DNA of 64,000 bases from an uncultured Gammaproteobacteria bacterium (GTDB lineage Bacteria; Patescibacteriota; Microgenomatia; UBA8517), in the NCBI GenBank assembly GCA_964635715.1, contig CAZWNZ010000001.1:10358-74357 (forward strand), written 5' to 3'. A program made the translations under genes and the position numbers. A model generated the notes under the pieces. It was not told where the DNA came from and searched no databases. It worked only from the letters and a program-made list of their open reading frames with translations. Of the stretch, positions 17,809-50,229 are shown piece after piece; the first letter of the stretch is position 1; each line of letters begins with the position of its first letter.

Positions 17809-17896
17809 ATCAGTTTGAATCTAGAATCTTGAATGTGGAATCTAGAGGACAAGAGTGATTTTAACAGGAGATTGAATCTAAATCAATAACAGATGA

Positions 17897-18330
17897 TTAA
17901 AATTTTCTATTTACTAGATGCCTATCTGTGTAAATAAGAACGTTTTGACCTTTGAAATTTAGATTATCTCTCTTTACTTTGAAACCTTGATTTTTTGCAT
18001 AATCAATTAGTGATTCTAACCAATTTACATTTGGTTTTTTAACTAAGGGTTCATCAATTACACAACAGGGTCAACCACGGTTACATCCCAGCCGTTTATA
18101 TTTAACAAAAGTGAAAGCAATCCTTTTCCACCACCAACATCTAAGGCTTTGGTGGGTTTGTATTTTTGGCTAAGCCACATCTGTAAAAGCTGAAAACGAA
18201 ACTTGTTGTTCAATCTTCGTTTTGTATTCATTAATCGGATTATACATTTTTTTAAATAATGAATTATATTATCTATTTTAATATTAATTAGTTCGATGGT
18301 TCGAACTATGGTACTATAAATATATGACAC
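17897..18330 (-). pseudogene. class I SAM-dependent methyltransferase remnant, frameshifted after motif I
   Basis: ORF 18058-18330 ends ...ALDVGGGKGLLSLLLNINGWDVTVVDPVV* (motif I). A second frame continues DEPLVKKPNVNWLESLIDYAKNQGFKVKRDNLNFKGQNVLIYTD... to a stop at 17897-17899. Confidence 0.45.
18289..18309. repeat. 21-bp direct repeat, 5' copy flanking TrpR-like gene 2 (8-4-8 dyad tagttcga-tggt-tcgaacta)
   Basis: tagttcgatggttcgaactat, identical to 18765-18785. Confidence 0.85.
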
Positions 18331-18767
18331 AAGTTTCTAGACATTTTATGAATCCTGATATTGAAAAGCGAGTTTATGAGGTATTTATAGAATCTGTTAA
18401 AAACACCAGAAATTCAAATGAAGTAATTGATTTTTTAAATGACTTACTTTCCCCTGTCGAAAAAATTATGATGGCAAAAAGAGTGGCCGTCGCATTTCTT
18501 TTACTTCAGGATAAATATACCTATGACCAAATTTCCAAAACCGTAAAGGTTAGTAGGGGTACAATTGCAAAAATTCATACCACTTTTGCTCTACAAGGAA
18601 AGGGGTATAGAAAAATTCTGGGAGATATTCTTAAAAGGAAAGTTGCGAAAATTGCATTATCGGAACTATTAGACGCGATAACTCTTCTTCCTCCAAAAGG
18701 TGCAAATCTTGGAGAATGGAAAAAGATGAAACGAAATGACAAATTAAAGAGAGAAAGTCCAATATAG
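18324..18767 (+). CDS. TrpR/YerC-like helix-turn-helix DNA-binding protein (paralogue 2 of 3)
   Basis: FLNDLLSPVEKIMMAKRVAVAFLLLQDKYTYDQISKTVKVSRGTIAKI (TrpR helix pattern). Confidence 0.6.
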   Translation: MTQVSRHFMNPDIEKRVYEVFIESVKNTRNSNEVIDFLNDLLSPVEKIMMAKRVAVAFLLLQDKYTYDQISKTVKVSRGTIAKIHTTFALQGKGYRKILGDILKRKVAKIALSELLDAITLLPPKGANLGEWKKMKRNDKLKRESPI

Positions 18768-18785
18768 TTCGATGGTTCGAACTAT
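18765..18785. repeat. 21-bp direct repeat, 3' copy flanking TrpR-like gene 2 (overlaps its TAG stop)
   Basis: tagttcgatggttcgaactat. Confidence 0.85.
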
Positions 18786-18884
18786 CGAACTACTTCGTGA
18801 GATAATCAACGATTAGATTAATTTAGTCTAATAAAAGAAACTATTAAGAAAATTACTTGAAGTCAATAGCAAAAAATGCCGATT

Positions 18885-28972: not shown

Positions 28973-29234
28973 TCACGTTTCGATTCTTTTGTCGCTTGCC
29001 CGCAAGGGTTCAAGTATCAGGAATCTAGCTACTTAAAAAGCAGCATTCCGAGCACAGTTTAAGTATGCCCAGAGTGCTGCCTTCAAATAGCTTTAGAGCA
29101 AGTTATCTCTTTGAAAGTTAAAGAACTTTTTGGCTAAGCTCAAGGCTATAGCCAAACTCGAATTCCAAGCAAATATAGAATTCAAGTATCCGATAGTATA
29201 ATATATCAGGGGCTAAAAATCCAGTGTATTACTG

Positions 29235-29612
29235 TTACGTAACACTAGTACACTTTGAGGATTGGCGGCTGGGTCGAAAATTATTTTTTTCAAATTTTTT
29301 ACTCCAAATAATACTAACCTCAACAAACCCTTTATTTATTAAATCTTGAGGTAAATTTTTAAAAGGACAACTACCAGCTCTCTCTAATTCACCAATAATC
29401 TTTCTTGCAATAGTAACTTGATTTTCGGTTGATTTTAAAACAGTGGCCATTTCACTAAGATTCAGGCCGGGAATACGCCTATGTTCCCAAAAATGATTTA
29501 CTAAATGAGCCGCACCATTTATATCCATTAATTGATTTTCCGGAAGGTCTTTAAGAAATGAGAGATCGAGTTCTTGTCTGGAATTGTCAGTTTCTTTTGA
29601 TTGCTCTACCAT
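29235..29612 (-). CDS. hypothetical protein, possible helix-turn-helix
   Basis: LNLSEMATVLKSTENQVTIARKIIGELERAG resembles an HTH; no confident family assignment. Confidence 0.3.
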   Translation of the reverse strand: MVEQSKETDNSRQELDLSFLKDLPENQLMDINGAAHLVNHFWEHRRIPGLNLSEMATVLKSTENQVTIARKIIGELERAGSCPFKNLPQDLINKGFVEVSIIWSKKFEKNNFRPSRQSSKCTSVT

Positions 29613-30121: not shown

Positions 30122-30811
30122 CTAGTCTTCGGGTGGAACCACCCTTGCCCTCACAATAAGTCTTTTCGGATATCTGGGGTCTCCCGGAGGTATGCAGGTT
30201 ACAAGAGTTATAAAAGAATCGCTGGAATCCTGATCCAGCACTTGCAAATCGGTCGGTGCAACCTCAAACATCTCTTCCACTTTGTAGGTGTATGATACGC
30301 CGTCATAATCGACGAACACAAAATCTCCGACCTTCATTGTCGGCAGCATTGTAAAAATAGAGATATAATTTTTCGGATTATTGAAAATCGGCAAAATTGA
30401 ATGACCGAATATAACAGCATTGCCGCGTTTTCCCGGAAGAGCTGTTCCCGGATATTGAATGAGGCTTTTGCTCAAATCTTCTCCGCCTATTGCCACTGTT
30501 GCCGATTCTATCTTGAGTTTTGGTATTGAGAGTGTGTAATAAGACACTTTTTCTGCGGTGAAATCCTCTACTGTTGCTCCGTTGGTAAACCAGCTGCTGG
30601 CCATGGTATCTTCTGTTCCTATGCCTGTCGATTCCGTCATAACTTTTTGTATCTGACCCTCCGAGTCGGCCAGCGGAGAAATTAGCTTGGTATAATTTTT
30701 CGAATATGTAGCATCATAGCTGACAATCGGATAAATCACCCCTATTAAAATGACTATTCCTGAAATACCTGAAATTAAAGCTGATATGCGCAATATTGTC
30801 TTTTGTTTCAT
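30122..30811 (-). CDS. sortase-family transpeptidase
   Basis: N-terminal TM; catalytic triad context IFGHS ... TLVTC ... RLIVRA. Confidence 0.7.
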   Translation of the reverse strand: MKQKTILRISALISGISGIVILIGVIYPIVSYDATYSKNYTKLISPLADSEGQIQKVMTESTGIGTEDTMASSWFTNGATVEDFTAEKVSYYTLSIPKLKIESATVAIGGEDLSKSLIQYPGTALPGKRGNAVIFGHSILPIFNNPKNYISIFTMLPTMKVGDFVFVDYDGVSYTYKVEEMFEVAPTDLQVLDQDSSDSFITLVTCIPPGDPRYPKRLIVRARVVPPED

Positions 30812-30856
30812 GCCAACAATTTTACTATATATTAATTTACAATCACTCGGGGAAAA

Positions 30857-33070
30857 TTACTCGGGTTTCACATCTACGGTAATATTCTTGGAAATTCTTG
30901 GGATGGTTTTCAAAAATCCCGGGAACTTAATTTTTAAAACAATATCCGCATGGTCAAAACCCTGAATAGAATTTAAGTATGAGGTGGCAATAGTTGTTGT
31001 CTTGCCGGATATCGTACTTTTTATCTTTTCCGCATCAACCTCAGGTAGGAAGTTTCCACCCACCACAACATCATAAACGTAATTGCCGTCTTGTTCTTCC
31101 ACAAAAGTGAACCTGAAATCTATCTGATCTGAAGTTAATATATAACCCGACGGGGATTTGTCGCCCAAAATTCCCTTTGCATATTCTAGAATTTGCTCCC
31201 TTTCTACTACCAAACCGGTAGCGTTAATTGTCAAAGCAAGCTTCAAATTGCTCGCCTGATCTCCAACATCATAATCGAAAATCTCTTTGGCAACATCCAA
31301 TCCGGCCAGGTCATTAACAAAGAGCTCGTCTGCAGAAATTTTTGCCGACAATTCCGATTTTGCATTCTGGCTAAGTTCTGTTTTCAACCCCTCCTCAAGC
31401 TCCGTTTGATCATCTTTGCTAACCGCCGAAATTTGCTGGCTACTACCGCCACTAAAGTCTGCTGTAGATGTTGCAGCAACAAGAGATTTGGAATAATTTC
31501 CAACACTAAATACTTCGCCCTTGGCTAAATTGTAGGTCGATCCAATATCATAAGCTGTGACATTCACAGTTGCAGTACCTGGGGAACCCGGCAAAATTTG
31601 ACCGGATATAGAGGCTTCATTATTTGTCAAAAATTTGAAACCTGACGAAGAAGTTAAAACTGTTCCTGACGTGAGATTTATAGCAACGCTGTTCCCGTTG
31701 GCTATCTCCACCGAACCTGACGCTTTATCACCAATAAGTTTGGTTCCTGTGGTTGATTTTGTTTTCTCACCGGACACTTCGCTTGTTACGGTTTTTGCAG
31801 GAATGATGTTGTTTTCTTGATTAAATTGATCTTTCGTACTGAATGTAATCCGCGCGCTCTCTTCCGCTCTCTTGGATGTAACATAAATAGTCACTTTAGC
31901 AGTTTGTGCAAACCACCATAAGCCAGCCACAGCCAGTAGAGCTAATCCGAGAATGGATAAGACCACCATCGGGACTCTTTTTTTCCCGGTAGAATTAATA
32001 TTTGGCTTGGAAAACATCTTGGAGAAAGAGTGGAATAGCTGTTTAGATTTGGTGAAATAATCTATATGTCCTTTTTGCGGTTGTGTGATCGGCGCTTCTA
32101 CCTGCTGAAATGGAGCTTTGGGATAAACATCAGTTGGGGGCGATTGTACAGGAACAACATTTTGGACATCTTCATTTTTCATCGAAGAAACGTCTTCCTC
32201 CAAAGCAAATCCCAAACTTTCCGCAGTCACGGGCTTTGTCTCTTCCGGTTTTTCATTTATTTCCTCATATTGAGGCTCCTCAACTTCTTTATATTCAGAC
32301 TTTTCGCTGCTGACCACTCCTTTGACGTCTCCCATCTCTGCTCCACCCGCTAAAGCTGTTGCTAATACTTTTTTATCCACACTTAAGACCTCCACCTGAG
32401 GTGTGTGTAAAAAGCTGATTTTACCTTCGCCCCAATTAGCCTGAAGCAAAGTCTGTTTTGCCTCCTCAAGCTCGCCTTCTTTTCCGTCATAGACAATGAA
32501 CCTTGTTGGTAGGGGTGATATCCCCTCAAATCTTGAAAGCCCCTCAATCACGTCATCCACCAGAGACACACTTCTTGAAACTTCCGTTGTTCCTGCCAGT
32601 TCGCCAAGTTTAAATACCGAAATTTCTAAATTTTCACCACTGGTATTCAAAACAATCGCATTAAGAGGTGATGATTCCTCGGATTTATATAAGTGAGCAA
32701 TTGCCTCAGGTAAGACAACGAATCCAACAGGAGTCAGAGAAAGCTCTGTGCAAAGTTTTTTTATTTTAAGAAGATTCTCCGGAGAAATCACTCCATCTTT
32801 TACCCATGAAGTGGAAACCCCAAAAACCGTCTTTGATGGTTCCGGATAATCCTCGGGGAGTTTTTGTATTGCCGATGAAAGAGCTGCATCAGTCGCTTCA
32901 ACCAACTCCTCATCATTTTCCCACGGAATTCCCGCCCCTATCCCGACAACCTTTGCCTCACCCTCACCTATATACCAAATTCCGGATTGCACCAAACCTT
33001 TTTCTATTACAAGTGCCCAAAAAAGCTCAGGTGGACTTTCTTTACTTGTTATCAAATCTTTAAGGTTCAT
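30857..33070 (-). CDS. large membrane protein: N-terminal cytoplasmic actin-fold (PilM/FtsA-like) domain, Pro/Glu-rich linker, one TM, ~350-aa Ser/Thr-rich extracellular domain
   Basis: N-terminus ...ALVIEKGLVQSGIWYIGEGEAKVVGIG...AIVLNTSGENLEISVFKLGELAG resembles PilM/FtsA nucleotide-binding strands. TM VVLSILGLALLAVAGLWWF at about residue 370. Confidence 0.35.
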   Translation of the reverse strand: MNLKDLITSKESPPELFWALVIEKGLVQSGIWYIGEGEAKVVGIGAGIPWENDEELVEATDAALSSAIQKLPEDYPEPSKTVFGVSTSWVKDGVISPENLLKIKKLCTELSLTPVGFVVLPEAIAHLYKSEESSPLNAIVLNTSGENLEISVFKLGELAGTTEVSRSVSLVDDVIEGLSRFEGISPLPTRFIVYDGKEGELEEAKQTLLQANWGEGKISFLHTPQVEVLSVDKKVLATALAGGAEMGDVKGVVSSEKSEYKEVEEPQYEEINEKPEETKPVTAESLGFALEEDVSSMKNEDVQNVVPVQSPPTDVYPKAPFQQVEAPITQPQKGHIDYFTKSKQLFHSFSKMFSKPNINSTGKKRVPMVVLSILGLALLAVAGLWWFAQTAKVTIYVTSKRAEESARITFSTKDQFNQENNIIPAKTVTSEVSGEKTKSTTGTKLIGDKASGSVEIANGNSVAINLTSGTVLTSSSGFKFLTNNEASISGQILPGSPGTATVNVTAYDIGSTYNLAKGEVFSVGNYSKSLVAATSTADFSGGSSQQISAVSKDDQTELEEGLKTELSQNAKSELSAKISADELFVNDLAGLDVAKEIFDYDVGDQASNLKLALTINATGLVVEREQILEYAKGILGDKSPSGYILTSDQIDFRFTFVEEQDGNYVYDVVVGGNFLPEVDAEKIKSTISGKTTTIATSYLNSIQGFDHADIVLKIKFPGFLKTIPRISKNITVDVKPE

Positions 33071-38279: not shown

Positions 38280-39935
38280 TTAAACCTCAACAACAACCGG
38301 TAATATCATTGGCCTCCTGCCGGTTTTTTGGAAGAAATATCTTTCCAGGAAATCGATAGAAATATTTTTAACAATATTTGAATTTATCTTTTTCTTCTTT
38401 TGAAGAGCTTTTACAAGCTCTCTCCCCGCGTCTTCCAAAACTTTTCCATACTTTTGTTCAAAGACAAATCCACGGCTTAAGATTTCCGGGTTTTCTGTTA
38501 AGATGCCTTCATTTCTATCAAAGTGAAGTATAGCTATAACAATTCCTTCTTTGGAAAGAATATGGCGATCTCTTAGAACTACATTCCCCACATCCCCGAT
38601 TCCCAATCCATCAACTAAAACTTCTTTAACAGGAATCCTACCGGATCGCTTGGCATAATTATTGGAAAACTCTACAACATCTCCTGATTCCAGTTCTAAA
38701 ACATCTTCCTCTTTTGCCCCCATGCTTCGGGCAATCATTCCATAAGCCCTCATATGTCTCACCGTACCCCCTATCGGAATAAAATATTTAGGTTTAATCA
38801 AAGCAAAAAGCATTTCAATATCTTTCTGGCACCCGTGGCCGGAAACATGAAGATCTTCCTGAGTATCGTAATAATGGACATCAACATTATCTTCAATAAG
38901 CTTATCTACAAGGTAATCAACATTAGCCTTACTCCCGGGAGGGGCTGGGTCGGCGGAAAATATTACCGCGTCCCCTTTTCCAACCGTCAAAAAATCATGT
39001 TCCCCGATTATTAAGCGGTAAAGGGCGCTTCCGGGTTGGCCATAACAACCGGAAATAATAAAAAGGAGCTGGTTGGGTTGCATTCTGATCGCCTGTTTAG
39101 ATTTAATTACTGCTCCATTTTCATAAAAAAGATAACCAAGATCTCTTGCAATTTCTGCTTTTCTCTCAATTGATCGGCCAACAAGAACAACTTTTCTGCC
39201 TAATTTTTGAGCCACATTTATTGTTTGTTGCATGCGGCTGATGTTTGAGGAAATTGTAGTTAAATATATCTTACCTTTAATTTTTCTTGCAACTGTTTCA
39301 ATTCTGTCTTCCAACTCTCTTTCACTTTCGGTATAGCCCGGAGATGTTGAACCGAGAGCATCGGACGCTAAAGCTAAAGCTCCGCCGGAAGCAAGAGTTG
39401 CCGCCTTAACTGCGTCAAATGGTCGGCCATCAACAGGAGTCCAATCAAATTTATAATCCGGTACATGGAACATCTTGCCTTCAGGAGTATCTATGCAAAA
39501 ACCTACTCCATCCGGAACCGAATGGCTAACCCTGAAAGGAGTCACTTTAAAAACGCCAAGGCTAAGCACATCACGCTCAGGATCAAAAACTTTAAGATTT
39601 GCATCCTTAATTTCATAATCGTCCAACTTGTCCTGAATAAAGCCTGCGACTAGTTTCGTGGAATATATCGGAACACTTACTTCTTTCAGAAGAAACGGAA
39701 GAGCTCCCAGGTGATCTTCATGACCATGGGAAACCAAAACCCCCCGGAGTTTGTTCTTGTTTTTAATAATGTACGAAAAATCAGGGATAACAAGGTCGAC
39801 CCCAAACATGTCGCTATCTGGAAAACCCACGCCGCAATCAACGATTATCATATCGTTCCCGTATTCATAAACATAAAGATTCTCCGTCACACCTGTGGTG
39901 CCGGATAATGCGATGAATTTGAGTTTATTTTGCAT
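38280..39935 (-). CDS. rnj: ribonuclease J (metallo-beta-lactamase / beta-CASP)
   Basis: VSHGHEDHLGALPFLL motif; 551 aa. Confidence 0.88.
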   Translation of the reverse strand: MQNKLKFIALSGTTGVTENLYVYEYGNDMIIVDCGVGFPDSDMFGVDLVIPDFSYIIKNKNKLRGVLVSHGHEDHLGALPFLLKEVSVPIYSTKLVAGFIQDKLDDYEIKDANLKVFDPERDVLSLGVFKVTPFRVSHSVPDGVGFCIDTPEGKMFHVPDYKFDWTPVDGRPFDAVKAATLASGGALALASDALGSTSPGYTESERELEDRIETVARKIKGKIYLTTISSNISRMQQTINVAQKLGRKVVLVGRSIERKAEIARDLGYLFYENGAVIKSKQAIRMQPNQLLFIISGCYGQPGSALYRLIIGEHDFLTVGKGDAVIFSADPAPPGSKANVDYLVDKLIEDNVDVHYYDTQEDLHVSGHGCQKDIEMLFALIKPKYFIPIGGTVRHMRAYGMIARSMGAKEEDVLELESGDVVEFSNNYAKRSGRIPVKEVLVDGLGIGDVGNVVLRDRHILSKEGIVIAILHFDRNEGILTENPEILSRGFVFEQKYGKVLEDAGRELVKALQKKKKINSNIVKNISIDFLERYFFQKTGRRPMILPVVVEV

Positions 39936-40637: not shown

Positions 40638-40655
40638 AAAATTGATCCTAAATAC

Positions 40656-40679
40656 TACATTACTATATAGTAATGTAGT
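40656..40679. repeat. perfect 24-bp palindrome ctacattactat|atagtaatgtag, same family as those flanking TrpR-like gene 3; orphan copy 16 nt upstream of the udg start
   Basis: Compare cttcaatactatatagtattgaag (49195-49218) and ctacaatactatatagtattgtag (49676-49699). Confidence 0.8.
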
Positions 40680-41180: not shown

Positions 41181-42227
41181 TTACTGTGGCAAAAACTCTT
41201 TGACATTTTGTGAGGTCACATGAACACTTTGCGCTTTTCCTTCAACCATCATTCTAGCAACTTTCCTTACAACTCCATCAACGTTTCGTTCAAGTGTACG
41301 AATTCCGGCATCGTACCCTAAAGGCCTGACAATATTTGCCCAAACATCGTCATCTATTGTCAACGTTCCCGACGGAAGTCCTGCTGCTTTCATAGCAGAA
41401 GGAAGTATATATTTTTGTGCAATGGTAACCTTCTCCTGGTCAGTATAGGAAGGCATTGCAATAGGCTCAAGTCTATCCATAACAGCTGTAGCTATGTTTG
41501 TGGTATTGTTGGCAGTTGCTATAAAGAGTGCTTCCGACAAGTCGAATGGAAAATCGATATAGTGATCGGTAAAAGCATGATTTTGTTTAGGATCAAGAAG
41601 TTCAACCAAAACACCCATTATTGAACTTCTTCCTTCATCAGTTACTCTATCAATCTCATCTAAAAGTACTACGGGATTTTTGCTTTGGGTATCCCGCAGT
41701 GCTTTAATAATTTTCCCCGGCTCTGCTTCAGGATGCATTCTACTCTGTCCGCGAAGGTCGAGAGGATCTCCCATTCCACCAAAAGGAATTCTGGCAATCG
41801 GACGTCCCAAAGCCTCCGCAATTGAATATGCAATTGTTGTTTTTCCTGTACCCACCAGACCCACAAAACACAAAATTGGTGCACGGTAAACATCCGCTCC
41901 TTCACCGCGTTCCTGTTTTAATTTCATAACACTCATGTATTCCAAAACACGGGTCTTAATATCAGCAAGGCCAAAGTGGTGTTTTTCCAAAATTACTTTT
42001 GCATTTTCCAGGTCCAGTGTGTCCTGCGTCCTTTTATTCCATGGGAGAAACGTAATCCAATCGATATACTTTTCCATCCTATCGTACTCAGGCAGAAATG
42101 ATGATGAGCTGGTAAGCTTTGAGAGCTGATTGAGACGGGTTAAAACCATCTCACGAAGTTTATCCGGCAAATCGGCAGTTTTAATTTTCTCAATTAAAGT
42201 AGTAATTTCCTGGGCAGCAGAATCCAT
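41181..42227 (-). CDS. Lon-like AAA+ ATPase module without the N-terminal LAN domain or the S16 protease domain
   Basis: YIDWITFLPWNK...HFGLADIKTRVLEYM...ILCFVGLVGTGKTTIAYSIAEALGRP...PVVLLDEIDRV...LFIATANN...MDRLEP track the Lon middle and AAA+ region. ORF ends at 348 aa, directly abutting the next gene. Confidence 0.65.
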   Translation of the reverse strand: MDSAAQEITTLIEKIKTADLPDKLREMVLTRLNQLSKLTSSSSFLPEYDRMEKYIDWITFLPWNKRTQDTLDLENAKVILEKHHFGLADIKTRVLEYMSVMKLKQERGEGADVYRAPILCFVGLVGTGKTTIAYSIAEALGRPIARIPFGGMGDPLDLRGQSRMHPEAEPGKIIKALRDTQSKNPVVLLDEIDRVTDEGRSSIMGVLVELLDPKQNHAFTDHYIDFPFDLSEALFIATANNTTNIATAVMDRLEPIAMPSYTDQEKVTIAQKYILPSAMKAAGLPSGTLTIDDDVWANIVRPLGYDAGIRTLERNVDGVVRKVARMMVEGKAQSVHVTSQNVKEFLPQ

Positions 42228-48853: not shown

Positions 48854-48878
48854 AAAAAAAGGTGGGACGAGTCCCACC
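48854..48878 (-). terminator. intrinsic terminator-like hairpin plus U-tract immediately upstream of the nusA start codon (candidate attenuator)
   Basis: Minus-strand ttggtgggactcgtcccacc followed by ttttttt. Stem ggtggga/tcccacc with loop ctcg. Confidence 0.5.
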
Positions 48879-49194
48879 AAATCAAATACTCAATTCCAGA
48901 TACAAGTTTAACTCATTAAAGCTAAAAACTCAAGCTACATAAGTAAGTTAATTTTGAGTATTAGTCTTCCCGAACATCTGCTGAAGTTCTTTTTCCGTCG
49001 GGTTTCTTTTTTCCTATTCACATTTTTTCATTAACCTGCAAATAGGACAGTCATCAATAATACAATTATTGCTTGATACCATAATGGCGTCACCTACTTT
49101 TTTACTGGATGTTTTCATCCTACCGTTTATAAATTTATATCATTCAAATCTGCAAATATTCAAGTGATTATTTTTATGATATATTGAATATATA

Positions 49195-49218
49195 CTTCAA
49201 TACTATATAGTATTGAAG
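49195..49218. repeat. perfect 24-bp palindrome cttcaatactat|atagtattgaag, 4 nt upstream of the TrpR-like gene 3 start
   Basis: Self-complementary by inspection. Confidence 0.85.
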
Positions 49219-49222
49219 TGCT

Positions 49223-49672
49223 ATGACTAAAATTTCAAAATTGCCATTAAGATCTGATGTTTGGAATCGGATTTTTGATTTGTTCGTCAGTACCCTATCC
49301 AACCAAAGAGATAAAAAGAAATTATCAAATTTTATTAATGATTTTTTCTCGCCAACTGAAAGAATAATGTTTGCAAAAAGGTTGGCTATTGCGGTTCTGG
49401 TCGCAAAAGGCCAAGATTATCAAAGTATCCACGAAATTTTGAAAGTAAGTCCACCAACTATTGCAAAACTTAGTTTAAGAATCAAATATATGGGGGAGGG
49501 TTTAAACCCTGTTATTAGAGATATTTTTAAGAGTCAGGCGTTGCAAATTATATGGAAAGAAACTGAAGATCTGTTTGATTTGCCAACAAAAGGTAACTTA
49601 AAATCGCCCGAAAGATTTAAAAGAAAACTTCGAAGAGTGAAGCAAATTAATAAAATGAGATCGGAATTTTAA
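49223..49672 (+). CDS. TrpR/YerC-like helix-turn-helix DNA-binding protein (paralogue 3 of 3)
   Basis: FINDFFSPTERIMFAKRLAIAVLVAKGQDYQSIHEILKVSPPTIAKL. Confidence 0.6.
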   Translation: MTKISKLPLRSDVWNRIFDLFVSTLSNQRDKKKLSNFINDFFSPTERIMFAKRLAIAVLVAKGQDYQSIHEILKVSPPTIAKLSLRIKYMGEGLNPVIRDIFKSQALQIIWKETEDLFDLPTKGNLKSPERFKRKLRRVKQINKMRSEF

Positions 49673-49675
49673 CTA

Positions 49676-49704
49676 CTACAATACTATATAGTATTGTAGT
49701 TTTT
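49676..49704 (+). terminator. perfect 24-bp palindrome ctacaatactat|atagtattgtag plus TTTTT; 3' copy of the gene-3 flanking repeat and probable terminator
   Basis: Begins 3 nt after the TAA stop; followed by ttttt at 49700-49704. Confidence 0.6.
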
Positions 49705-49734
49705 AGGCACAAAATTACATTAATTTCATCAAAT

Positions 49735-50229
49735 TTATGAGATTAATCGTTTGGCTTCTTCCAAAAAAACTAAGTCTCTTTGTTGAATAAATTTACCTTC
49801 ATAATTATTTGATTTGTCATTTTTGATGGCTTCGATGACTCCATTTAATGTCATCCAAACAAGTCGGTGACCTTCTTCAATCTCTTTAGACTCCCAGTGG
49901 GGAGTTCCTTTAGATTTTATTTTTCCTAAATAACAATACGAAGTCTGATAAAGATAAAGTTTGGATCGATATTCTTCCACTTTTCCGATCTCTCCTATAA
50001 TTTCTATTTCACATCCAGTTTCTTCCTTTATCTCTCTTTTACAGGCAGTTATTTCATCTTCATCTTTTTCAATCCCGCCGCCAGGTAATTTATAATAATT
50101 ATATTTAGATACGAATTCGAGAGGAATCTGATCATTCTCATCAAAAGCTACAGCACGAGATGCAAAACGTTTCCAATTATTTTTATTTTCTTTGTACGGT
50201 TTATCTTCTATATATTTTAGAAGTCTCAT
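49735..50229 (-). CDS. NUDIX hydrolase
   Basis: Nudix box [25 protein letters not shown]. Confidence 0.8.

Follow-up and report, generated by a model that had tools for sequence, protein, structure and literature searches.

Sequence-specific DNA-binding proteins act as polymerase barriers at dispersed sites in the Tus–Ter and RTP–Ter systems and in those of the eukaryotic Reb1/TTF-I and mitochondrial mTERF terminator proteins; tus and rtp are autoregulated via a site in their own promoter, and the rRNA gene has TTF-I sites at either end. Repetitive extragenic palindromes (REPs) are short elements dispersed outside genes, where they follow gene 3′ ends or separate convergent genes; the genes for REP-associated tyrosine transposases (RAYTs) are flanked by two of them. 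The operators of the TrpR family are palindromes of approximately 20 bp, and around half of the hisR genes have a site upstream (PMC9413887). Here, we describe a gene for a TrpR-like protein, termed cassette 3, together with the perfect palindrome, P, that brackets it on both sides in a 64,000-nucleotide stretch of contig CAZWNZ010000001.1 (hereafter, the window, meaning the whole stretch analyzed). The host is an uncultured Woesebacterium of the candidate phyla radiation (CPR). Rather than forming a private operator pair, P is a member of a dispersed family of sites located at gene ends. CPR bacteria have tiny genomes, few recognizable regulators, and almost no experimental genetics; to our knowledge, very little has been learned of how they start and end transcription units, and we know of no bacterial helix-turn-helix (HTH) family that defines ordinary gene ends.

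Anatomy of Cassette 3

The 24-bp core of the 5′ copy of P, CTTCAATACTAT|ATAGTATTGAAG, occupies positions 49195–49218 and is followed by TGCT and by the ATG of the gene at 49223. The gene (49223–49672, + strand) encodes a protein of 149 amino acids and ends in TAA at 49670–49672; the core of the 3′ copy, CTACAATACTAT|ATAGTATTGTAG (49676–49699), is separated from this stop codon by 3 nt and is followed by TTTTT at 49700–49704. A previous sequence-only reading of the window had described two perfect palindromes bracketing the gene at this spacing, and their perfection extends even further, to 26 bp, in both the putative operator (49194–49219, ending 3 nt before the ATG) and the gene-end copy (49675–49700, 2–3 nt after the stop codon). 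The same reading was also correct in placing the cassette between nusA and a NUDIX/dnaK block, since its neighbors are nusA/infB on one side and NUDIX–dnaJ–dnaK on the other, all of them on the opposite strand, and in describing the differences between the two copies as mirrored, which affect one position per arm (T/A to A/T).

Moreover, the third family member reported upstream of udg is present at 40654–40679 (ACTACATTACTAT|ATAGTAATGTAGT). This solo copy, ACTACATTACTATATAGTAATGTAGT as a continuous sequence, lies between a metallophosphoesterase gene, whose stop codon is 6 nt before it, and udg, whose ATG is 16 nt after it, and its arm variant recurs unchanged in locus L002, in the copy located 5′ of the orthologous TrpR-like gene. 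The 18-nt core of the palindrome, with up to three mismatches, is matched three times in the 64-kb window, in comparison with 0.03 expected matches, and none of 100 shuffles reached three. The consensus of P, over 26–28 bp, is Y-ACTnnAnTACTATATAGTAnTnnAGT-R.

A Family of Palindromes Dispersed at Gene Ends

Metagenome contigs were scanned for ACTNNANTACTATATAGTANTNNAGT, using the exact core only, and the loci obtained are, hence, ascertained on the presence of the palindrome. The scan returned 116 loci with 133 sites, 29 of which adjoin a TrpR-like gene. After deduplication, 104 unique sites remained, among which 19 adjoin such a gene and approximately 80% have no TrpR-like gene nearby. A contig of 554 kb carries 11 sites, the first at 12.8 kb and the last at 436.8 kb, and its TrpR-like gene is flanked by two of these; the density of the palindrome is about one per 50 kb.

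The solo sites are concentrated in the 11% of the DNA that is non-coding, where their distribution is not even (p = 0.007). Of the intergenic regions that hold unique solo sites, 15 are convergent, 4 divergent, and 30 co-directional, compared with 7.4, 6.8, and 34.8, respectively, expected from the numbers of such regions. In the co-directional regions, the palindrome is closer to the upstream stop codon in 23 cases and to the downstream start codon in 8, and it is often found 1–10 nt from the stop codon, even when 100 nt are left before the next gene. In some convergent pairs, the TAA within the arm variant ACTTAATT provides the stop codon of both genes. The genes that end at the palindrome are miscellaneous and include those for a uvrD-like helicase, the polA 5′–3′ exonuclease, murA, murI, hisS, proS, trmD, rpsP, map, gatC, rfb genes, and NUDIX. 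The possibility that solo sites are promoters or operators of a coherent regulon was considered and rejected, as they have no −35 box, are nearer to stop than to start codons, and have miscellaneous housekeeping neighbors.

When the palindrome occurs within genes, it always reads as T[ST][IL]LYS..V. All of the intragenic copies examined (L096, L098, L101, L106, L119, L167, L182, L193, and others) use this same frame (TSILYSIEV and similar) and never the other open frame, LQYYIVLK. Furthermore, the Ga0172379 contigs (L081, L093, L102, L120, L121, L152, and L194) contain a longer, genome-specific element, CGACCAAT-ACTTCATTACTATATAGTAATGAAGT-ATTGGTCG, which is a palindrome of about 42 bp and is sometimes followed by TTTTT.

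Persistence of the Sites

In four species or loci, whose proteins are 45–70% identical, the gene for a UvrD-like helicase has the palindrome at its 3′ end, and in three species or loci, whose proteins are 57–65% identical, the 5′–3′ exonuclease gene does so as well, with unrelated flanks in both cases. In uvrC, homologues lacking P have a segment of equal length that contains degenerate versions of it, so the copy is not a recent insertion, and the interpretation of the uvrC copy as an insertion was rejected. No target-site duplications were found around the sites, since direct repeats of 2–8 nt at offsets 0–3 match expectation. In addition, viral contigs contained no relative and a single palindrome match, and a phage origin was rejected on these grounds. 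Taken together, these observations favor long-term selected residence of the palindrome over a selfish mobile element, which is the less probable reading.

Mirrored Changes in the Arms

The pattern used in the scan leaves three positions per arm free, and at least 15 arm variants were found. Perfect mirroring of the arms occurs in 76 of the 104 unique sites, in comparison with 10.9 ± 3.0 (maximum 24) in 5000 shuffles. The symmetry also goes past the conserved 26 bp and into sequence that is specific to each site, by at least one base in 48 of these 76 sites and by at least three in 13, and the two copies that bracket a gene often differ from each other in their outer arms, which are mirrored within each copy individually. 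Among the mismatched arm cells, only 4 of 50 are of the G·T type, which argues for pairing at the level of DNA rather than RNA. A perfect palindrome of 84 bp in L159 (1393–1476) was discarded; it runs to the end of a contig of 1476 nt and is probably an assembly fold-back.

The sequence-only reading had proposed that the dyad symmetry is under selection. The upkeep of the symmetry through mirrored changes is supported by the excess over shuffles, but selection is unproven, because templated (hairpin-directed) mutation could yield the same mirrored changes. Either P has a role as a hairpin or cruciform, or the identity of the arms is preserved by hairpin-templated mutation.

The TrpR-Like Protein

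The product of cassette 3 is a protein of the TrpR/YerC family, as the earlier reading had recognized. It scores 41.0 bits against the Pfam profile Trp_repressor PF01371 (cut-off 27, E 2e-10, residues 18–99), and its two paralogues in the window reach 48.4 and 39.6 bits. When PDB sequences were searched with a profile built from 31 orthologues, the only matches were the YerC/HisR-type structures 3FRW, 3G1C, and 3KOR. These orthologues are 149-residue proteins of Candidatus Woesebacteria, named ‘YerC’ or ‘TrpR like’ in their sources. The AlphaFold (AF2) model, with a predicted local distance difference test (pLDDT) score of 78, displays an all-helical TrpR fold with an HTH, and its top Foldseek matches are 3KOR, 3FRW, 3G1C, 1TRR, and 1TRO, all with a probability of 1.00 and target-normalized TM-scores of 0.66–0.78; complexes of E. 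coli TrpR with its operator are among the matches.

The core of the protein comprises residues 18–106, with the recognition helix ...SPPTIAKLS..., and extra C-terminal helices at 94–117 and 129–148. There is no nuclease or other catalytic domain in the 149 residues, which consist of the TrpR fold and the two helices only. The hhalign alignment to TrpR, although weak (E 0.008), keeps the recognition helix in register, with T79, K82, and S84 corresponding to T81, R84, and S86 of TrpR, respectively, and with P, P, and A in place of I79, A80, and T83 of TrpR. The DNA contacts of TrpR include T81 and R84 (PMC9413887). Residues T79 and I80 are invariant among the 31 orthologues.

The 5′ Copy as Putative Promoter and Operator

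Whether the 5′ palindrome overlaps the promoter or the transcription start was a question raised by the earlier reading, and the geometry of the region points to such an overlap. A −35-like hexamer, TTGAAT (49184–49189, + strand), is located 4 nt upstream of the palindrome and is followed, after a spacer of 16 or 18 nt, by the −10-like hexamers TATAGT (49206–49211) or TAGTAT (49208–49213), both within the right-hand arm region of P; the promoter-like match is TTGAAT-16-TATAGT. A TTG hexamer 3–6 nt upstream of the palindrome is present in 9 of 12 5′ copies of TrpR-like genes, in contrast to 1 of 14 3′ copies, 1 of 14 solo sites before start codons, and 12 of 140 other flanks (about 9%). Moreover, across 81 family genes, TTG peaks at −35/−37 and TAnnnT at −12/−17 relative to the ATG. 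Because of this conserved −35 TTG and of the positional peaks in the family, the 5′ copy is most likely an autoregulatory operator that covers the spacer, the −10 box, and the start site.

From this geometry, we infer a transcription start at approximately 49217–49221, only 2–6 nt before the ATG, and the mRNA would be nearly leaderless. The hairpin that the 5′ copy could form as RNA would have −13.8 kcal/mol, and its predicted position is upstream of the transcription start. The lack of a Shine–Dalgarno (SD) motif was discarded as a sign of a leaderless mRNA, since this genome hardly uses such motifs and their absence is, therefore, uninformative: an SD-like tetramer at −20 to −4 precedes only 7 of the 45 other ATG-start genes of the window. 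In addition, the N-terminal codons ATGACAAAG (MTK) are conserved, and the opposite strand reads there as TTGTCA, a good −35 match located 4 nt from the palindrome in L084, L118, L170, L184, and other 5′ copies. A divergent promoter may use the left half of the palindrome.

The 3′ Copy and Transcription Termination

According to the sequence-only reading, the 3′ copy doubles as a terminator, a role that is at best local and weak. Its hairpin has −12.7 to −14 kcal/mol on either strand, with an AT-rich stem of 11 pairs, 3 of them G–C, followed by U4–5, and a consensus terminator scan of 49600–49780 called no terminator at this copy. In the family, 3 of 38 3′ copies have a T-rich tail, compared with a background of 9%. 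At the dispersed sites, the flank downstream of the palindrome with respect to the ending gene is T-rich in 12% of the cases versus 14% of the other flanks (p = 0.62). Since the rate of U-tracts does not exceed the background and the scan was negative, the palindromes as a family are not canonical terminators, and this general role for the 3′ copy was rejected. The T5 run at 49700–49704 (+ strand) belongs to this copy and does not characterize the family; it weakly resembles a terminator tail and may help termination locally.

The distance between 5′ and 3′ copies (420–546 bp from center to center) showed no signal of helical phasing at periods of 10–11.5, although looping is still compatible with these data, and arm length did not differ between 3′ and 5′ copies (Wilcoxon p = 0.43).

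Paralogues and Family-Wide Pairing of Genes and Elements

The window contains three paralogues within its 64 kb, and each of them has its own element, with one copy shortly upstream of the ATG and another shortly downstream of the stop codon. In cassette 2 (18289–18792, + strand), a TrpR-like open reading frame (ORF) at 18324–18767 is flanked by the element TAGTTCGATGGTTCGAACTA(TGGTACTA/TCGAACTA) at 18289–18316 and 18765–18792. This cassette sits antisense between rpsG and fusA, within the conserved str operon (region 17809–18884). The rpsG–fusA gap also holds a TrpR-like gene in L018 (antisense) and in the Paceibacterota locus L068 (sense), each with a different palindrome. In cassette 1 (1537–2021, + strand), the TrpR-like ORF has its likely ATG at 1569 and its end at 1976, and is flanked by a direct repeat of 30 nt, TCTTTAACGATGCATTGATG[T/C]ATGATAAAA, with copies at 1537–1566 and 1992–2021. 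The element of cassette 1 is not a hairpin, as indicated by fold z-scores of +0.6 and −0.3.

In order to assess this arrangement in the family, 80 loci with relatives were fetched from Microgenomates, Parcubacteria/Paceibacterota, and Saccharibacteria, and the 90 nt upstream of each start codon were compared with the 110 nt downstream of the stop codon, using mismatched loci as the null. The same element of 18–33 nt is located before the ATG and after the stop codon in 48 of 78 family genes (p ≤ 0.01 against the mismatched-locus null, which is itself inflated by related palindromes), and additional copies of the element fall just beyond the 90/110-nt comparison windows. Most elements are perfect or near-perfect palindromes and are different in each subfamily (e.g., TACGATATATCGTA, TGATTTAAATCA, ATGATTCGAATCAT, and ACTTCAATAC...GTATTGAAGT). 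Nevertheless, L114, L126, L124, and L049, with only 30–38% identity to the nearest family members previously collected, carry a palindrome of the cassette 3 (W3) type, and the subfamilies with a W3-type palindrome also share a recognition helix, either xPTIAKxS or PVTVAKV. Of all the observations, this co-occurrence of helix and palindrome speaks most strongly for recognition of the palindrome by the protein.

The orientation of the cassettes relative to neighboring genes is random, and cassettes occur inside conserved operons. The orthologues of cassette 3 retain a dnaJ or nusA neighborhood in several genomes, but not in all of them. In the Paceibacterota loci L045 and L047, TrpR-like genes with related palindromes are found directly upstream of udg, and in L049 (Gottesmanbacteria), a TrpR-like gene lies between homologues of the window ORFs 41181–42227 (AAA ATPase) and 38280–39935 (RNase J). 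The corresponding neighborhood in the window holds only the solo palindrome.

Proposed Mechanism and Alternative Explanations

The interpretation that we prefer starts from the anatomy of the cassette, the 5′ plus 3′ architecture of the family, the dispersal and positions of the sites, their mirrored arms, and the conservation of orthologous gene-end sites, all of which are direct observations. The product of cassette 3 would be a dimeric HTH protein whose DNA site is P, with its 26–28 bp. Since the 5′ copy would cover the −10 box and start site of a nearly leaderless promoter, the bound protein would shut off its own synthesis, in the manner of TrpR and HisR. When bound to copies behind stop codons, such as those of related Woesebacteria, the protein could mark or enforce the ends of transcription units, acting as a roadblock or insulator, and the hairpin that P is able to form might aid this boundary function. 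In this way, the gene of the regulator itself would be fenced on both sides. It is probable that the protein binds the palindrome, and autorepression through the 5′ copy also seems likely, if slightly less assured. By contrast, the role of gene-end copies, including 49675–49700 and 40654–40679, as protein-dependent boundaries of transcription units is a tentative proposal, less probable than not, and the model as a whole, with binding, autorepression, and gene-end marking, appears evenly balanced between being right and being wrong.

Several considerations weigh against this model. Each of its functional steps (binding, autorepression, and roadblock) is one that we infer from sequence. The promoter-like match of cassette 3, taken by itself, is not above chance, since this AT-rich region contains 7 such matches against 5.3 expected. 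Approximately 22–30 sites are found inside genuine genes (uvrC, glycosyltransferases, and membrane proteins), where a roadblock would be harmful unless binding were conditional. A dimeric repressor needs neither perfect symmetry nor a site-specific, outward extension of the palindrome; something further acts on P, in the form of hairpin or cruciform formation or of templated mutation. No solo copies of the elements of cassettes 1 and 2 were found in the 1.24 Mb scanned; therefore, dispersal may be special to the cassette 3 palindrome type. Finally, the gene calls in the fetched loci are simple, crude ORF calls.

Other explanations can account for part of the data. A purely local one would regard the 5′ palindrome as an operator, the 3′ palindrome as the intrinsic terminator of the gene, with the same sequence by coincidence, and the udg site as the third operator of a small regulon. 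The hairpin of −12.7 to −14 kcal/mol followed by UUUUU in the window, the location of P 16 nt upstream of the udg ATG, and the TrpR-like genes directly upstream of udg in L045 and L047 agree with it. However, U-tracts are at background and the scan does not call the 3′ copy, a plain terminator would not be expected to change along with the operator from one subfamily to the next, and most sites are solo, behind stop codons or between convergent genes, without a −35 box and beside functionally unrelated genes, which makes this explanation quite unlikely. The transcript, instead of the DNA, might be the relevant molecule if the stem-loop of P were a 3′-end stabilizer or a terminator without a U-tract, and if the protein bound the RNA hairpin and repressed its own translation via the 5′ hairpin. 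Mirrored arm changes and variable stem extension indeed resemble stem covariation, the sites lie 1–10 nt after stop codons, and the 5′ hairpin abuts the ATG. Nevertheless, the −35/−10 geometry puts the start at the end of the 5′ palindrome, and therefore the 5′ copy would not be transcribed. Moreover, with G·T in only 4 of 50 mismatched cells there is no tolerance of wobble, the element of cassette 1 is no hairpin, the protein has the DNA-binding fold of TrpR, and no Rfam match was obtained in the window. A function at the RNA level is, hence, very improbable.

The distribution of the sites also admits readings in which P does not mark genes. P could be a REP-like element, selfish or domesticated, with palindrome–gene–palindrome as the ‘autonomous’ unit, the TrpR-like protein as DNA-binding partner, and the bias toward gene ends as tolerated insertion. 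In keeping with this, cognate palindromes stand on both sides of the gene, solo copies lie outside genes, follow gene 3′ ends, and are over-represented between convergent genes, some copies are in frame inside genes, the flank consensus is genome-specific in the Ga0172379 contigs (CGACCAAT...ATTGGTCG), and cassettes have random orientation and are located within conserved operons. Such an element is decidedly unlikely, however, in view of the absence of a catalytic domain and of target-site duplications, the low copy number of about one per 50 kb, the conservation of orthologous sites across deep divergence, the uvrC site that is no insertion, and the viral contigs, in which the gene and the P family were not found beyond a single palindrome match. 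Similarly, the sites could serve chromosome organization or replication, as parS/ParB, matS/MatP, or Ter/Tus–RTP do, with a protein that autoregulates as tus does with TerB. About 10 palindromes per half-megabase along a contig, some of them intragenic, together with conservation across species and the presence of one site in the protein's own promoter, agree with such a role. Nonetheless, these systems require neither strong enrichment in the 11% non-coding DNA nor anchoring to stop codons, and the many paralogues, each with its own element and with no adjacent partner gene such as parA, make this role improbable. We retain, with the qualifications given above, an autorepressing protein whose cognate palindrome may also mark gene ends.

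Other Features of the Window

Almost all the genes of the window are encoded by the − strand; the three for TrpR-like proteins are encoded by the + strand. An imperfect palindrome of 32 bp, AGTGTATTACTGTTACGTAACACTAGTACACT, at 29223–29254, overlaps the stop codon of the ORF 29235–29612 (−) and is similar to TGTATCATTGTTACGTAACAATGATACA at L107:10261; it may be the site of a further paralogue encoded elsewhere. A degenerate core, TACTATATATTA, with asymmetric arms, is located at 30823–30834, 11 nt upstream of the ATG of the ORF 30122–30811 (−) and 22 nt past the stop codon of the ORF 30857–33070. A G+C-rich hairpin, GGTGGGACTCGTCCCACC, followed by T7, is found at 48861–48878 on the − strand, directly upstream of the likely nusA ATG (around 48847) and within the ORF called from a TTG at 48880, and looks like a terminator or attenuator ahead of nusA. 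Neither known RNA families (Rfam) nor tRNAs were detected in the window.

Comparison with Known Systems

The protein of cassette 3 shares with E. coli TrpR the Pfam family, the fold, and, according to a weak alignment, the register of the recognition helix (T79/K82 as T81/R84), and its putative operator resembles that of the trpR promoter in being a palindromic site with ACT/AGT motifs 8 bp apart, over the −10 box and at the gene's own promoter. However, it has 149 residues instead of the 108 of TrpR, including the motif MTK[VI]S at the N-terminus and a C-terminal extension of 45 residues; the site is a perfect palindrome of 26–28 bp instead of about 20 bp and has a second copy behind the stop codon; and copies of the cassette 3 type are dispersed at gene ends, not at promoters. 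A connection of the system with tryptophan genes is also absent. The protein is related to the histidine repressors HisR (YerC) of Firmicutes by its closest solved relatives (3FRW, 3G1C, and 3KOR), by the name ‘YerC’, and by a palindromic putative operator, which in HisR has 20 bp. Nevertheless, the HisR motif, cacTTTAnnnnnnTAAAgtg (PMC9413887), is unrelated to P. HisR is also usually a single-copy protein of fewer than 100 residues located at his or transporter genes, whereas three paralogues with a downstream site are found here in 64 kb. No his genes are found near cassette 3, the genes beside solo sites are miscellaneous, and the cassette is not a member of the HisR/YerC regulon.

A literature search on TrpR-like/YerC proteins, CPR transcription factors, and palindromic repeats of Patescibacteria returned the work on HisR only and nothing on this architecture, which points to the possible marking of gene ends by a dispersed cognate palindrome as undescribed in the literature searched. 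A widespread and expanded TrpR-like family with a putative site on both sides of its genes would offer a dictionary of protein/DNA-site pairs for CPR bacteria, and the conserved, scattered gene-end sites make it testable whether these bacteria delimit genes by sequence-specific DNA-binding proteins. In addition, the mirrored arm changes represent a natural data set on the upkeep of perfect palindromes.

With REP/RAYT systems, cassette 3 has in common a gene flanked by cognate palindromes and solo copies that are extragenic and located at gene 3′ ends. However, the protein has an HTH fold of the repressor type and not the HUH (Y1) nuclease of RAYT, P reaches about 20 copies per Mb in comparison with hundreds for REPs, and it is perfect and conserved at orthologous positions. 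As regards Tus, RTP, Reb1, TTF-I, and mTERF, these proteins have other folds, and Ter sites are polar and clustered at the terminus; a barrier role of P is a proposal. In the broadest terms, TrpR-like proteins and their cognate palindromes could constitute a protein-defined system of transcription-unit boundaries in CPR bacteria, a speculative and rather doubtful generalization in which each paralogue would have its own palindrome, the gene of the regulator would be fenced, further copies would stand behind stop codons and occasionally within genes, and the mirrored arms would be kept by hairpin or cruciform formation. Such a system would be a bacterial counterpart of Reb1, TTF-I, and mTERF.

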